NCBI GenBank assembly: GCA_963663165.1
Contig: OY760175.1
Location: 640,001 to 704,000, forward strand
Direction of reading: 5' to 3'
Length of the DNA stretch: 64,000 nt
Origin: an uncultured Desulfospira sp.
Lineage (GTDB): Bacteria; Desulfobacterota; Desulfobacteria; Desulfobacterales; Desulfobacteraceae
Shown here: positions 24,001 through 30,000 of the stretch, in pieces
Position numbering within the stretch: position 1 is the first letter of the stretch
Layout: each line of letters begins with the position of its first letter
Program-made: the position numbers

Positions 24001-27000
24001 CCATTGGTGAACCCCAAGCTGGGTCAGATGTTTAATGATCAGGTCCATGTTCTGGTGTTTGAGCATGGCTGAACAGACCGTTAGCTTGAGAGGGGATTCA
24101 CTGATAGATTCCTGTGAGGTCAAAATTTCAATGTTTACTTCTTTAGGGGAGGATTCAAGGATTCTGCCGGTATAATCCATTCCATGGCCATTGGTCAGGG
24201 CAACCGTATCACCGGTTTTCAGGCGCAGAATTTTTGCCATATGTCTGGCATCCTGACCGGTAATGATAACACAATTATCTTGAATCGGGTCATCAGGACC
24301 AATGAGAAACTTAGGCATGGCAATCCAGGGCCAGTAAAAATTTTTCTATGAAAAATTGAATCTGGGTTTCGGTCAGGGCTGGAAACAAAGGAAGGCTCAA
24401 ACATCTTGAGTAATAGGTGTCGGCGTTAGGGCATTTTCCTTCTTGAAATCCATATTTTTGCGAGTAATACGGCTGGCGGTAAATGGGAATATAATGAACC
24501 TGGCAGAAAACTTCCTGATCAATGAGAAACTGGTGGATTTTTTTACGAACCGTTCCGCCCTTTGCAAACTGGACCGGATAAAGATGGGGACAGGCCGTTT
24601 TTTCAAGGTTGCTGTGGGGCAGAATCAGGCGGTCATCACCTGAAAATGTCCGGTTGTAACGGCGGACAATTTGCTGTCTTTTTTCCTTGAATTCCTTTAA
24701 CCGGCCAAGCTGGGAGATGCCAAGGGCGCATTGAATTTCGGTGATGCGGTAATTCAGGCTCAATTGCTGCATTTCATGGTACCATGGCCCGACCTTTGAG
24801 ATAAACTCAAGCGTTTTCACAATACCGTGATTGCGAAGGGACCGCAGACGGGCGGCCAGGTTTTTGTCATTGGTCAGGACAGCCCCCCCTTCACCGGTGG
24901 TGATGGTTTTCACCGGATGAAAGGAAAAAATCGCTAAATCAGTGTGGGTGCAGGAGCCACACGCATAAAAATGACCATTGAATTCGTATTCGGACCCGAT
25001 GGAATGAGCGGCATCTTCAATAATGGCAAACCCATATTGATCCGCCAGGGCCCGGATGGCCGGAAGATCCGCCGGCAGTCCGGCAAAATCCACCGGAATG
25101 ACCACCTTTGGGGGGGGGTGATGCCGGCAGTATTGATCAAGTTTTTCAGGACAAAGGCAAAGGCTGACAGGATCAATATCGATAAAATCAGCCTGTCCGC
25201 CGCACAACTCGATACAGTTGGCAGACGCCATAAAAGAGTTGGGAGTGGTCAGCCCCATGTCCCCTGGACCAACCTCTAGTGCCATGCAGGCCAGGTGCAG
25301 GGCAGCGGTTCCGTTGGTACAGACCACCGCGTATTTTGCACCGGTCAAATCGCAAAGCCCGTCCTCAAACTGTTCGGCAACAGGTCCCGTGGTTAAAAAG
25401 GGAGCCTCAAGGGTTTGAATCACAGCCTGAATATCTTTTTGGCTGACCCACTGGCGTCCGTAAGGGATGGCCTTGCTTTCCCAGCTTTCTGTTGGCTGTT
25501 TATCCCCCATGAATGGAGAATACGCGAAGGCGGCGAGAAATTCAATACAGTCTATAATAAATTACAGGGCCCCCGCACCGCATTGTAAAAAAACCTTGAC
25601 AGGATTGAAAAGGAGCTGTAGGAGTAACACCATAATATTGAGAAAATCTTTAATGAGACACCAGATGAATACACCGGCAGCACAGTTTATATTTAGTTTT
25701 GAACGTTTCTTCTTCTTTTTTAGGAGCGTTCATCCGGTGTAGCTTACATTAAAAAATAAACTTTGTAAGGCCCCGGGTGGACATGAGCCACCCGGGGCCT
25801 TTTTGCTTTCAGGCCCCGGAGGAAAACTTCCGGGGCTTTTTTTATTTAAAAAGCAATTGGCCGTTCGCCAACAGCTATCCGCTAAAGGCTAATGGCTAAC
25901 CGCTAAAAGCTAATGAAAAGGAGCCCACATGTTACTGGTATTAGACAATCAGATCACACAAAATCAAAAGGACCGGATAAAATCGGTACTGGCCGATGAA
26001 GGATGCATTGCCCGTGAAATCACGGACGCGGGAAGGAACCTGATGGCGATTATTGGCAAATCCCTTAAATCACCGGACGAATATAAACAGCTTGACGCCG
26101 TCATGGATGCCATGCCCATTACCACCCCCTATAAACTGGTCAGCCGGGAATTTAAATCTGAAGACACCCGGATTAAAGTTGGGGATGTTACCCTGGGGGG
26201 CGATCGAATCGTCATCATTGCCGGTCCCTGTGCTGTAGAAAGCCGTGAACAGGCCCTGACCATCGCAAAGGAAGTTAAAAAATACGGGGCCGTGCTGTTC
26301 AGGGGCGGGGCCTATAAACCCCGGTCTTCACCATATTCTTTCCAGGGGCTTGAGGAAGACGGATTAAAAATTCTGGCCGAGGTCAGGGAGACCACAGGCC
26401 TTGGTGTGGTGACGGAAATGACGTCCCCGGCCCAGGCTGAACTCATGGAACAATACGTGGATGTGATCCAGATCGGGGCCCGTAACATGCAGAATTTTGA
26501 GCTCTTAAAATGCGTGGGCAAAATGAGCAAGCCCGTGGTGCTTAAACGGGGGCTTGCCTCCACCATCCAGGAATGGCTCATGTCTGCCGAGTATATTGCG
26601 GCGGGTGGAAATGAAAACGTGATTCTCTGTGAACGGGGCATCCGGACCTTTGAGCCCTTCACCAGAAACACCCTGGATCTGTCCGCCATTCCGGTACTAA
26701 AAAAACTCACCCATCTTCCCATCGTCATTGACCCAAGCCATGCCACAGGGATCAGGGAAAAGGTGGCGCCCATGGCAAGGGCTGCCGTAGCCGCCGGGGC
26801 TGATGCCCTGATGATTGAGGTCCACCATGATCCGGACAATGCCTTGTCTGACGGGCCCCAAAGCCTTTATCCCGAACAGTTCGGCAAGCTTGCCCGGGAT
26901 ATTTATGTGATTGCCCCTGTGGTGGGAAAGCAGCTGGACTACGATTACCTTAAAAAATCTGCGGTCATGGGCAAGGTCCATAACGGATCAGTCAAAACAG

Positions 27001-30000
27001 CGGCCTATATCGGTGAAAAAGGGGCTTACAGCCATAAGGCGTGCATTTCCTATTTCGGTGATGATGCAAGCTTTCTGTCCATGAACAGTTTTTCCGATAT
27101 TTTTAAGGCGGTGGAAAAAGGCGACGTGGATTACGGCATGGTACCGGTTGAAAACTCTTTATCCGGCTCTATTCATGAAAATTTTGATTTGCTTCAGGCC
27201 CATGACTTAAAAATTATCGGTGATATCACCATCCGGATCAAACATGCCCTGATCGGTATGGCAGGGGCCACCAAATCAGATCTTAAGAAAATCATGGGGC
27301 CGCCGCCGGCGCTGACCCAGTGCAAAGATTACCTGGCCCAGTATCCTGATGTGGAAACCGTACCTGTGGTGGCCACGTCTTCAGCGGTAAAAATGGTACG
27401 GGATATGGCGGATAAATCCTGTGCGGCCATCGGTTCAACCATGGCGGCCAAGGAGTTTGACATGCAGATCATCGAAGAATCCATTGAAGACAATCCCAGA
27501 AACTTCACCCGGTTCGTGGTAATTGCCAGGGAAGACAAAGGACATAAAAAGGTTCATAAATCCTCCATTATTTTTACCACGGGCAACAAGCCCGGTGCCC
27601 TGTTTGAGATCATGAAAATTTTCAGTGAACATGAAATCAACCTGGTCAAGCTTGAGTCCAGGCCGATCCATGGCAAACCCTGGGAATATATGTTTTATAC
27701 CGATCTTGAGGCGGATATTGAAAACCCGGAACTTTCCGGCATGCTGGAAGACCTTAAATCCAAGGCGGAAACTTTCCGGATTATTGGAAGGTATTAATTA
27801 GGTTAACAGGGGTTTGGACTGACGGCTGAAGGGAGTTGGGAATGCACATTCCTTCAGCCTAAACACCTTCAGCCTGATCCCCTTTTATTTAACATGCCGG
27901 CGGCGATGGTTGTGCCGATGATGATGGCACCTCCGGCCAGGGTTCTAAAGGAGGGGACTTCATGGAGCAGAAAAAAGGCCAGGATGATGCCGTATACGGG
28001 TTCAAGGCCGGCAATAACGCTGGCGGTCTGGGCCCGGATAAAGGACAGGGAATGGATAAACAGGGTATGGGCAAGGGCCGTGCAAAAAACCCCAAGCACC
28101 ATCAGGTAGGGAAGATCGGACAGGCCCGGCCGGGTTAAGTTCAGACACCAAACCAGTGGCAAAAGGCAGATTGCCGCAGACAGGTTTTGGTAAAAGGCTA
28201 CGGCCACCGGGTTTGAAAATCCGGCGTTTTTCCGGTTGACCAGGGCCAGGACTGCAAAAGTAAATCCTGACAACAGTCCGAAAAACGCCCCCAATGTAAC
28301 CGTGTTACCAAAATCAAGGTCCGGCACCACCAGAACGATTCCGGCAAACACGGCCAGGGCGGTGAAGATGTCGGCTTTCCGTAAGGTTTCCTTAAAAAAA
28401 AGGGGTTCCATAAATGTCACAAACAATGGAAAGCTTGAAAAGGTGACAAGACCTAAGGCCACACTCGAGATCTGGATGGACAGAAAAAAAGTCACCCAGT
28501 GGACGGCCAGCAGCACCCCCTGGAGAACAAAGAGTAAAAACGCCCTGACGGTAAAGCCCGAAAGCCGGTCTCCTGAAACCCACCGGGCATACCCCCAGAG
28601 GGCGGCCGCTCCAAAGCCGGTCCGCCCCAAAACAATAAACACAGGACTGCATGACAGAAATTTTCCAAAGAGCCCGGCAAGGCCGAATAAAAACACGGCA
28701 AAATGAACTAGAAAAAGGCCGTTTTTTGCCATTATCGGGTCAGCTGCCGGTATTTGATCCGGGTGGGCTGGTCTGCTTTAATGCCCAGCCGTTTTTTTCT
28801 ATCCTTTTCATAGTCTGAATAGGATCCTTCAAAGAACAGGGTCTGGCTGTCCCCTTCAAAGGCCAGGATATGGGTGGCGATACGGTCCAGGAACCAGCGG
28901 TCATGGCTGATAATCACGGCGCAGCCGGCAAAATTTTCAATGGCCTCCTCTAACGCCCGCATGGTGTTGACATCCAGGTCATTGGTGGGTTCGTCCAGCA
29001 GCAGGACATTGGCCTCCTGCCGGAGCAGGGTGGCCATGTGGACCCGGTTGCGCTCCCCGCCCGAGAGGTCTTTAACCCTTTTTTGCTGGTCAGTTCCTGA
29101 AAAGTTGAATTTTCCCACATAGGCCCTGGCATTGATTTCCCTACCGCCCATAAGCAGTTTTTCCTGGCCCTGGGATATGGTTTCAAAGATCGTTTTTTCA
29201 GGGTCAAGGGTGTCCCGCTCCTGGTCTACATAGGCCAGGCGGACACTCTGGCCCAGTTCAATTTTTCCGGAATCCGGGACCTCTTTTCCCGTGATCATGT
29301 TGAACAAGGTGGTCTTGCCCGCCCCGTTGGGACCGATCACACCAACAATGGCCCCGGGGGGCAGGATAAAGTTCATGTCATCCACCAGAAACTTTTCACC
29401 AAAGGCTTTGGAAACCTGCTCGGCTACAATAACCTTGTCCCCGAGCCGGGGCCCTGGTGGAATGAAAATTTCCATTTTCTCTTCCTGGTCTTTGACATCT
29501 TTTTTGAGCAGCTCTTCATAAGCGCTGATCCTGGCCTTGGATTTGGACCGCTTGCCCTTGGGTGACATGTTGATCCATTCCAGTTCCCTTTGAAGGGTTT
29601 TCTGCCGCTTGCTTTCCCCTTTGGCCTCATTGGCCAGTCGTCGTTGTTTCTGGTCCAGCCAGGACGAGTAATTTCCCTTCCAGGGAATGCCTTCTCCCCG
29701 GTCAAGCTCCAGGATCCACCCGGCCACGTTGTCCAGAAAATACCGGTCATGGGTGACGGCAATGACCGTGCCTTCATACTGGCTCAAATGCTGTTCGAGC
29801 CAGGCCACGGACTCAGCGTCCAGGTGGTTGGTGGGCTCGTCCAGAAGCAGGATGTCCGGCTTGCTGAGCAATAGACGGCACAGGGCCACCCGCCGTTTTT
29901 CACCGCCGGAGATCCTGTCCACCCCAACGTCTTCGGGGGGGCATCTGAGAGCATCCATGGCCATTTTCAGCCGGGCGTCCAGGTCCCATGCATCCATGTG

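Follow-up and report, generated by a model that had tools for sequence, protein, structure and literature searches.

A type I-beta DAHP synthase fused to prephenate dehydratase and ACT domains in an uncultured Desulfospira, preceded by a predicted phenylalanine-codon attenuator

The window, by which we mean the whole 64,000-nt stretch of DNA analysed and to whose (+) strand all coordinates refer, contains at 25929-27797 a single ATG-initiated frame of 622 amino acids without internal stops, and its translation comprises, in this order, a probable ferredoxin-like (FL) domain, a type I-beta DAHP synthase barrel, a variable linker of about 20 residues, a prephenate dehydratase (PDT) domain and an ACT domain (Table 1). 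Pfam DAHP_synth_1 (PF00793) matches residues 86-321 with 276.3 bits (cut-off 25.5), PDT (PF00800) residues 359-536 with 197.3 bits (cut-off 25.2) and ACT residues 546-602 with 35.3 bits (cut-off 27), in agreement with the figures of the initial annotation, which had likewise described a DAHP synthase joined to a full PDT and ACT module. Furthermore, the NCBIfam model PRK08673 covers residues 1-335 (468.2 bits, cut-off 335), beginning at the very first residue, TIGR01361 gives 392.3 bits (cut-off 267.75) and the prephenate dehydratase model PRK11898 covers residues 358-622 (232.1 bits, cut-off 219). With Pfam DAHP_snth_FXD (PF18152) residues 1-65 of the window's protein score 17.5 bits, under the cut-off of 27, and this profile finds no match in the fused relative P0122, while P0121 scores 28.1 bits and P0123, P0124, P0125 and P0134 score 38.3-51.1; in an alignment of 39 fused proteins the FL domain is present in every one. 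The database annotation of the fused protein reads only '3-deoxy-7-phosphoheptulonate synthase'.

Table 1. Features of the fused gene and its leader, in window coordinates
Feature	Position	Strand	Basis or remark
Leader peptide ORF MRHQMNTPAAQFIFSFERFFFFFRSVHPV, followed by stop	25653..25742	+	translation; start may be ATG at 25665
Attenuator region 1 (codons E-R-F-F)	25701..25710	+	fold; pairs with region 2 at 25722-25731
Attenuator region 2 (codons R-S-V-H-P)	25722..25737	+	pairs with region 1 or terminator-1 5' arm
Terminator 1 (regions 3:4)	25767..25810	+	14-pair G+C-rich stem 25767-25801, then T run
Terminator 2 (regions 5:6)	25811..25847	+	12-pair stem 25811-25838, then T run
Shine-Dalgarno-like AAGGAG	25918..25923	+	5 nt 5' of ATG, read from sequence
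Probable FL (ACT-like) domain at the N-terminus, as in DAHP synthases of the Thermotoga type, aa 1-66	25929..26126	+	Pfam DAHP_snth_FXD below cut-off; PRK08673
Type I-beta DAHP synthase barrel, aa 70-335	26136..26933	+	profiles; 1rzm alignment; column counts
Poorly conserved linker, aa 336-357	26934..26999	+	alignment conservation and consensus
PDT catalytic domain, aa 358-540, T527-R528-F529	27000..27548	+	profiles; 2qmx alignment
ACT domain, aa 541-622 and stop codon, G556-A-L-F, E576-S-R-P	27549..27797	+	Pfam; 2qmx alignment

In the barrel, the metal ligands C101, H271, E297 and D308 and the motif K130-P-R132 are intact and align with the T. maritima enzyme 1rzm, in which we take the corresponding ligands to be C102, H272, E298 and D309, accompanied by a KPR(S/T) motif. 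These metal-ligand and substrate motifs are kept in the window's protein, at 26 of 26 loci in the alignment and in P0121-P0124 (31-32 of 33 sequences), but the metal ligands are lost in P0125 and P0134, two divergent lineages of the 33-sequence alignment, and the term bifunctional therefore fails for the family as a whole. In the PDT-ACT half the motifs TRF, GAL and ESRP align with those of the C. tepidum PDT 2qmx, the last residue of the GALV motif being Phe here (GALF), and neither T-R-F nor E-S-R-P varies among the 33 aligned fused proteins; two further loci have S-R-F. According to PMC13217925, TRF is the catalytic triad of PDT, and GALV and ESRP are regulatory motifs.

Of 200 other genomes from the same order, 44 carry the full-length fused frame, as do 24 of 300 in a sample of the phylum, and the best 120 protein clusters (71-100% identity), which derive from many independent contigs, all have the same architecture, with lengths mostly of 621-625 residues (range 607-665). 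The fusion is thus common among sulfate-reducing bacteria and no rarity, and the earlier count of 3 in 20 other Desulfobacterales understated its spread. Related genomes do contain DAHP synthase and PDT genes side by side, and it might be argued that the long frame is two such neighbours run together through a mistake in sequencing or assembly; however, the recurrence of the uninterrupted frame already refutes such an artefact, and the split operons are furthermore built differently, lacking the FL domain and carrying a chorismate mutase (CM) domain, so that the chance of an error is negligible. Literature searches returned no paper and no bench study on a DAHP synthase-PDT-ACT fusion.

The four PF00793 matches of the genome are, by NCBIfam naming, a I-alpha aroFGH enzyme (TIGR00034, 472.7 bits), a stand-alone FL-I-beta DAHP synthase (PRK08673, 482.7 bits), the fused gene and a KDO8P synthase. 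Instead of the three type I-beta DAHP synthases initially annotated there are consequently two, one of them the fusion, together with one I-alpha enzyme; the separate CM-PDT and CM-prephenate dehydrogenase genes reported at the same time were recovered by profile searches. The PDT domain of the former, to which the fused PDT half is 33-34% identical, makes the fused PDT dispensable in this genome. Its existence, and the allosteric action of CM domains fused to DAHP synthase described in PMC8408635, favour the notion, also entertained initially, that the PDT-ACT half is a non-catalytic Phe/prephenate sensor for DAHP synthase, comparable to the CM domain of Bacillus-type enzymes, the separate CM-PDT making phenylpyruvate. 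This is nevertheless improbable, considering that the TRF triad is intact and does not vary among the aligned fused proteins, that the whole PDT domain is recognised and passes the NCBIfam PDT equivalog model, and that the fusion holds the only PF00800 domain in 25 of the 44 carrier genomes, as it also does in 5 of 5 picked genomes, where only means the sole PF00800 member and a periplasmic-type cyclohexadienyl dehydratase or Phe uptake may coexist. The latter observation in particular suggests that the PDT half is a working enzyme and not a mere sensor. A single CM_2 domain is encoded elsewhere in 4 of 5 genomes of this sole-PDT kind.

The leader ORF upstream of the fused gene has 25-29 codons, depending on the start chosen, with 8 Phe, no Tyr and no Trp, and includes an FFFFF run at 25707-25721. 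A conserved leader peptide ending in FG[RC]FFFxFRSVHPVV directly before the stop codon is found in 24 of 30 fused-gene loci, and 510 leader codons together comprise 149 Phe, 5 Tyr and no Trp; among the six loci without the strict motif, two have another Phe-rich peptide and at two no leader peptide was found. Positions 25728-25737 of region 2 can pair with 25773-25782 in the 5' arm of terminator 1, and this antiterminator overlaps the end of the leader ORF and is mutually exclusive with terminator 1. Complementarity exists furthermore between the 5' arm of terminator 2 and the terminator-1 3' arm, which makes the 4:5 pairing a possible second antiterminator, although it could also stem from two related terminators evolving in concert instead of from selection for such an antiterminator.

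Covariation in an alignment of 24 leader sequences agrees with both states. The 1:2 helix (10 pairs; 97.1% of cells pair, and 3 pairs have changes on both sides), the terminator-1 helix (13 pairs, 92.6%, 7 changed) and the terminator-2 helix (9 pairs, 92.6%, 8 changed) together keep 94.0% of pairs with 18 changed on both sides, a level reached in 0 of 500 shuffles and compared with 31-56% in slid controls. The 2:3 antiterminator helix (10 pairs, 96.7%, 2 changed) and the 4:5 helix (8 pairs, 90.6%, 4 changed) likewise keep 94.0% with 6 changed on both sides (slid controls 23-60%), and three-way covariation is seen at alignment columns 57/106/127. The leader scores 25 bits with Rfam Phe_leader RF01859 against a gathering score of 55 and is hence not a member of that family, but judging from its pairings it would work like pheL, as a ribosome-mediated leader-peptide attenuator.

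A covariance model of the leader gives one strong match in this genome, before the fused gene (70.7 bits; the next scores 29.6), and matches in 43 of 150 genomes of the order (E<=1e-9), in 24 of them immediately 5' of the fusion. The 30 loci that score best, taken one per genome, cover 12 of the 19 non-fusion genomes with a match, and in this set 12 of 12 non-fusion matches precede a core DAHP synthase gene. In the eight non-fusion operons that were read, this gene is followed by an ORF of 353-395 residues with a CM-type N-terminus, confirmed by Pfam as CM-PDT-ACT in three. The other DAHP synthases carry different leaders: that of the I-alpha enzyme is Tyr-rich in this genome and at 13 of 13 relatives' loci, and a Trp-Trp leader precedes the stand-alone FL enzyme here, with WW or WWW at 8 of 13 relatives' loci. 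Since the fusion alone among them has a Phe-rich leader, it appears to be the Phe-specific isoenzyme at the transcriptional level, which supports the Phe specificity initially predicted, by way of a leader that the initial annotation did not mention.

In view of the domain architecture, the intact motifs of both enzymes, the relatives in which the fusion holds the only PDT domain, and the conserved leader with its alternative pairings, we consider it quite likely that the locus encodes a bifunctional DAHP synthase-PDT enzyme under a Phe-codon attenuator. The FL-type I-beta DAHP synthase, at the entry of the shikimate pathway, would be tethered by the linker to the committed step of phenylalanine synthesis, catalysed by PDT and accompanied by a presumably Phe-binding ACT domain, while the CM-prephenate dehydrogenase and CM-PDT genes would provide chorismate mutase in trans. 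Under a shortage of Phe-tRNA, ribosomes would stall in region 1 on its run of Phe codons and region 2 would pair with the terminator-1 5' arm; the 3' arm thereby released could in turn bind the terminator-2 5' arm, so that transcription would continue into the gene; when Phe is plentiful, a ribosome at the stop codon would cover region 2 and both terminators would form. By this scheme Phe shortage would lift pathway entry and the Phe-committing step together and in 1:1 stoichiometry, and as eight enzymatic steps lie between the two reactions, the fusion probably serves co-regulation and not channelling.

Feedback inhibition of the T. maritima DAHP synthase by Tyr and Phe proceeds through dimerisation of its FL domain. 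The constant presence of this domain in the fused proteins, the fact that the linker is their least conserved stretch and the finding of the same leader before two separate genes in non-fusion genomes, where co-expression alone is evidently workable, accord with two independent enzymes on a flexible tether, in which the fusion fixes only co-expression and stoichiometry, the FL domain feeds back on DAHP synthase and binding of Phe to the ACT domain acts on PDT alone. We give this reading almost an even chance; it departs from the bifunctional enzyme under attenuation favoured above solely on whether Phe or prephenate inhibits DAHP synthase by way of the PDT-ACT half. However, P0125 and P0134 keep a dead barrel before an intact PDT-ACT half, hinting that one half has a non-catalytic role for the other, and in CM-DAHP synthase fusions allosteric signals pass between the domains even though the links are flexible (PMC8408635). 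Control of the DAHP synthase half through the fused ACT domain, the other part of the initial prediction, is put forward by analogy, as a putative property of the bifunctional enzyme.

A more far-reaching proposal, which we regard as rather doubtful, is that PDT-ACT constitutes a new allosteric device for type I-beta DAHP synthase, with the dead-barrel lineages as its mirror case and a six-segment attenuator upstream. Binding of Phe to the ACT dimer, and perhaps of prephenate to the PDT cleft, would then shut the DAHP synthase barrel, possibly jointly with the retained FL domain. If so, the pathway entrance would have a two-sensor, Phe-specific gate with reciprocal effects on PDT, like those on CM in Prevotella, the barrel of lineages with intact PDT but lost metal ligands would survive as a scaffold or regulator, and the attenuator (1:2, 3:4 and 5:6 versus 2:3 and 4:5) would relay one ribosome stall through two terminators.

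DAHP synthase is the textbook case of allosteric control gained by adding domains to a barrel, and to our knowledge the add-ons described are chorismate mutase and the FL/ACT-like domain. A family of wide occurrence that carries instead a complete enzyme of the Phe branch, together with a presumed Phe sensor, is a candidate third solution to DAHP synthase control, for which the split operons under the same leader, the reversed-order fusions discussed below and the dead-barrel lineages provide natural controls. In this genome each of three DAHP synthase isoenzymes lies behind a Phe-, Tyr- or Trp-codon leader peptide, a predicted functional equivalent, by way of attenuation, of AroG, AroF and AroH in E. 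coli. Moreover, name-based pathway reconstruction would score the sole-PDT genomes as lacking pheA, because the fused protein is named for its DAHP synthase activity only.

With regard to known systems, the T. maritima DAHP synthase (1rzm, 3pg9, 4grs) aligns at full length with residues 35-335 of the fused protein (320-325 bits) and shares its Cys/His/Glu/Asp metal site and probably its N-terminal FL domain, but ends after the barrel, where the fused protein adds 287 residues comprising a second enzyme and ACT. The CM-fused I-beta enzymes likewise join a later-pathway domain to the barrel, N-terminally in Bacillus, Listeria and Geobacillus and C-terminally in Porphyromonas and Prevotella, and the domain attached to the C-terminus of PniDAH7PS is both catalytically active and a carrier of allosteric signals in either direction (PMC8408635). 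The present fusion differs from these in having PDT-ACT, which acts one step later and is Phe-specific, in skipping CM and in adding the FL domain. Enterobacterial PheA (AroQ CM-PDT-ACT) with pheL shares the TRF, GAL and ESRP motifs and an upstream Phe-codon leader-peptide attenuator, predicted in the present case, whereas the fusion lacks CM and its leader has two tandem terminators. Finally, CM-PDT-ACT-DAHP synthase fusions, found by Pfam in about 30 of 53 representatives scanned, unite the same two enzymes in one polypeptide, and PMC1173090 mentions one in Shewanella oneidensis, where an aroA(I-beta) 'pseudogene' is fused to aroQ-pheA. In these the domain order is however reversed, CM is present and FL absent, and they form separate clades in the trees of both DAHP synthase and PDT, which indicates that the fusion described here arose independently.

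The fused gene is a single open frame, and its Pfam and NCBIfam matches (see the table) bear out the initial annotation, which described a DAHP synthase joined to a prephenate dehydratase (PDT) and an ACT domain. The closest solved structures are those of the Thermotoga maritima DAHP synthase (4grs, 1rzm) for the N-terminal half and of the Chlorobium tepidum PDT (2qmx) for the C-terminal half. When aligned to 1rzm, residues C101, H271, E297 and D308 of the fused protein fall on the metal-ligand positions, which in the Thermotoga enzyme are C102, H272, E298 and D309, and the KPR(S/T) motif is found as well. 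The alignment to 2qmx furthermore has the TRF triad of the PDT half (T527-R-F) in place, which settles a point left unchecked in the initial annotation, namely whether the catalytic residues of the PDT are intact, and the motifs G556-A-L-F and E576-S-R-P are likewise present in the ACT domain. A catalytic role of TRF and regulatory roles of the two ACT motifs are described in PMC13217925. The gene stands alone without co-oriented partners, between a divergent DegT-type aminotransferase gene upstream and a convergent EamA-family transporter gene downstream; EamA-family (DMT) transporter genes are found nearby at window 22065-23000 (-) and 27869-28732 (-), neither of them co-oriented with it.

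Features of the fused gene and protein, of its leader region and of related loci (C1, contig of the window genome; L069 and L072, loci of other genomes)
Feature	Position	Strand	Evidence or remark
Fused gene	window 25929-27797	+	single open frame, 622 codons, ATG start
AAGGAG	5-nt spacing before fused-gene ATG	+	sequence
Ferredoxin-like (FL) DAHP-synthase domain	aa 1-65 of fused protein		Pfam 17.5 bits, below cut-off 27
DAHP_synth_1	aa 86-321 of fused protein		Pfam 276.3 bits
PDT	aa 359-536 of fused protein		Pfam 197.3 bits
ACT	aa 546-602 of fused protein		Pfam 35.3 bits
PRK08673 (NCBIfam, Thermotoga-type)	aa 1-335 of fused protein		468.2 bits, cut-off 335
PRK11898 (NCBIfam prephenate dehydratase equivalog)	aa 358-622 of fused protein		232.1 bits, cut-off 219
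Leader ORF ending in QFIFSFERFFFFFRSVHPV and stop	window 25653 or 25665 to 25742	+	between divergent upstream gene and fused-gene start
Terminator hairpin 1	window 25767-25801	+	G+C-rich, T run; downstream of leader ORF
Terminator hairpin 2	window 25811-25838	+	G+C-rich, T run; after hairpin 1
Tyr-rich leader peptide MNSRYTGSYYFWYYFYTRTACGVWMNL and terminator	C1:4614392-4614475	-	outside window, upstream of I-alpha DAHP synthase
Leader peptide with YRWWRF and two terminators	C1:3076057-3076146	+	outside window, upstream of stand-alone FL-DAHP synthase
Mixed Phe/Tyr leader MHIILTDIFFYFYRYYYTGFCLW (containing IFFYFYRYYYTGF) and terminator	C1:763609-763680	-	outside window, upstream of CM-PDT gene
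ACT-pair protein genes	L069:3132-3584, L072:2807-3247	-	PF19571

An alignment of 33 proteins with this domain layout took in the one from the window, 26 from genomes of the order Desulfobacterales and six representatives of distant clusters. T-R-F and E-S-R-P show no variation in it, and P0125 and P0134 are the two proteins that depart from the DAHP synthase residues kept in the others. The barrel of P0125 has Cys changed to Ala, Glu to Ser and Asp to Gly, that of P0134 has five changes at metal or substrate residues, and both represent distant metagenomic lineages, present on several contigs, in which TRF and ESRP are intact; they appear to combine an intact PDT with a dead barrel ahead of it. 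In P0187, a metagenomic cluster of the same architecture, the DAHP synthase domain scores just 67.6 bits next to strong PDT (200.8 bits) and ACT matches, and all three are likely pseudo-DAHP synthase lineages. As a separate observation, S-R-F replaces T-R-F in L011 and L013, two loci of one family, and a second PDT is found in both of these genomes.

Whether the PDT half is an enzyme or a sensor was addressed by searching PF00800 over 200 genomes of the order and crossing the matches with the list of 44 fusion carriers. Since the fused gene is the only PF00800 match in 25 of these carriers, its PDT half must, as far as can be judged from a family model that is blind to PheC-type dehydratases, be a working dehydratase in most of them. 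The 25 include the near-complete genomes G037 (3 contigs, 99% complete, same family as the window genome) and G145 (20 contigs, 99%), and a direct check of five picked genomes agreed in each case. One CM_2 (chorismate mutase, CM) domain occurs elsewhere in four of five such sole-PDT genomes, in three of them within a frame of 382-399 aa like the CM-prephenate dehydrogenase of the window genome. A second PDT is present in the other 19 carriers, as it is in the window genome.

The fused gene is preceded by a short leader ORF rich in Phe codons and by two terminator hairpins, and the region folds far better than its shuffles (z = -6.3). Dense Phe runs are by themselves nonspecific, 69 short frames with such runs being found genome-wide, and the case for the leader rests on conservation and covariation. 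The peptide FG[RC]FFFxFRSVHPVV, followed by stop, precedes the fused gene in 24 of 30 loci, spread over many families; of the remaining six, two have another Phe-rich peptide, no peptide was found in two, and two were compared with the strict motif alone. The last approximately 20 codons of the 24 leaders comprise 149 Phe, 5 Tyr and 0 Trp in 510 codons. Rfam, searched over window 25300-28000 at a permissive threshold, held no family for the leader (Phe_leader 25 bits against 55), and its other matches, likewise below threshold (e.g. SraC/RyeA, 32.7 against 37), were read as look-alikes of terminator hairpins. The interval between attenuator and start codon also holds tandem GCTAANN heptamers (window 25881-25915, with others at 39926-39953). 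These were considered as a regulator-binding array shared with the I-alpha DAHP synthase gene, and the idea was rejected given 134 such arrays of 4-11 units on both strands, which make up a short repeat found throughout the genome and not confined to aromatic genes.

In the terminator state, region 1 (the G-R-F-F codons) pairs with region 2 (the R-S-V codons) next to terminators 1 and 2 (regions 3:4 and 5:6). The V-H-P codons, for their part, are perfectly complementary to the 5' arm of terminator 1, so that the conserved non-Phe residues of the peptide are explained by the predicted RNA pairing. Across the 24 sequences, 94.0% of the terminator state (32 pairs) is paired and 18 of the pairs show changes on both sides; none of 500 shuffles is as high, and slid controls lie at 31-56%. 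The antiterminator state (regions 2:3 and 4:5, 18 pairs) reaches the same 94.0%, both sides having changed in 6 pairs, compared with 23-60% for its slid controls. At one position region 2 and the 5' and 3' arms of the terminator covary three ways (columns 57, 106 and 127), as expected of an attenuator. Pairing 4:5, by which one stalled ribosome would relieve both terminators, covaries as well; since the two hairpins are related and may instead have evolved in concert, this pairing is regarded as inferred.

A covariance model of the leader and terminator 1 has a single strong match in the window genome, which scores 70.7 bits and lies before the fused gene; a weak second one, at C1:4688696-4688774 (+) outside the window, scores 29.6 bits (E 0.003). 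Of 150 other genomes from the order, 43 have a match at E<=1e-9, fusion carriers of this sample being taken as the 30 with handles up to G150. The fusion is present in 24 of the 43, with the match directly upstream of it in each, and 19 are without it. The best-scoring 30 leader loci comprise 18 before a fused gene and 12 before a core DAHP synthase without FL domain. Eight such split operons were read, and in all of them a core DAHP synthase of approximately 270-320 aa is followed by an ORF of 353-395 aa (354-357 aa in six) with a CM-type N-terminus; the leader peptide is the same in seven, and in each of the three operons checked with Pfam CM_2-PDT-ACT comes after the core DAHP synthase. The leader, judging from this distribution, marks a functional unit that predates the fusion or extends beyond it and, since the same leader precedes split operons, the conserved theme is apparently the co-expression of DAHP synthase and PDT under Phe control, of which the fusion is one wiring. 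In two split operons the Phe leader is separated from the core synthase by the gene for a free-standing ACT-pair protein of 147-151 aa, a protein that may be a trans-acting regulatory subunit replacing the FL domain.

The initial annotation counted three I-beta DAHP synthases in the genome; NCBIfam naming of the PF00793 genes reduces these to two I-beta enzymes, the fused and a stand-alone FL-containing one, and one I-alpha aroFGH enzyme, the remaining match being a KDO8P synthase. Leaders were also found upstream of the I-alpha, stand-alone FL and CM-PDT genes, in these cases judged by peptide and terminator and not by RNA covariation. Among loci of relatives, a Tyr-rich leader with 4-7 Tyr precedes the I-alpha gene in 13 of 13 (L080-L092), and a WW or WWW leader is found for the stand-alone FL enzyme in 8 of 13 (L094-L106).

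We consider it quite probable that the fused protein is a bifunctional DAHP synthase/PDT switched on at Phe shortage by ribosome-mediated attenuation, read-through of the attenuator raising expression of the fused gene, and that Phe bound at the ACT domain would exert feedback on the PDT half. A further control of the DAHP synthase half by the ACT or PDT part, as the initial annotation proposed, seems to us rather doubtful. Cross-talk across flexible links is described in PMC8408635 for a Prevotella CM fusion and might by analogy apply here, and the dead-barrel lineages hint at dependence between the domains. A PDT-ACT half that does not gate the synthase would, for its part, fit the variable linker (aa 336-357, the least conserved stretch of the protein), the retained FL domain and the viability of split operons. 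A complex prediction of aa 1-340 against aa 352-622 from 39-row alignments lent no support, scoring 0.07 where the mark is 0.32, and counts in neither direction.

An even sample of the order, 200 other genomes in all, has 44 with the full-length fused frame (23 of 89 families, 55-64% identity), and in a phylum sample 24 of 300 genomes carry it, 22 of these outside the order. In a large protein collection the best 120 clusters all have the fused architecture, mostly at 621-625 aa (range 607-665); they come from Desulfospira, Desulfobacula, Desulfotignum and Desulfobacteraceae MAGs and are named, if at all, just '3-deoxy-7-phosphoheptulonate synthase'. A library clustered at 50% identity holds Pfam-checked representatives of the same architecture at 63, 47, 47, 47, 46 and 38% identity, one of these clusters containing a Treponemataceae record. 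A midpoint-rooted DAHP synthase tree was set aside, because long-branch members made the common ancestor of the N-type fusions the whole tree, and clades in the DAHP-synthase-domain tree together with the PDT tree were therefore relied on instead. The former places 34 Desulfobacterales-type fusions in one clade (support 0.999), which most other fusions with the same domain order adjoin, and in the PDT-ACT tree all fusions of this order form one clade (support 1.0, or 0.93 with representative P0123) apart from the CM-PDTs; these clades fit a single old origin of the fusion.

In full-text searches that covered few subscription journals, with hits judged mostly by title or abstract, we found no description of the fused architecture or of the leader family. 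The I-beta DAHP synthase is also found fused, each time in a single cluster representative, to EPSP synthase (P0157, 770 aa), to prephenate dehydrogenase (P0167, 714 aa) and to anthranilate synthase component I (P0232, 773 aa), and the latter two would, by their domain content, be Tyr-branch and Trp-branch counterparts of the present fusion. The component parts of the protein are textbook knowledge and DAHP synthase-CM fusions are well studied. Fusions of the reverse order (CM-PDT-ACT-DAHP synthase, with or without CM, and PDT-DAHP synthase-CM) are commoner still among the representatives and cluster apart from the Desulfobacterales type, and the opposite-order P-protein fusion has been known since 2005, when, according to PMC1173090, a decayed one was reported in Shewanella.
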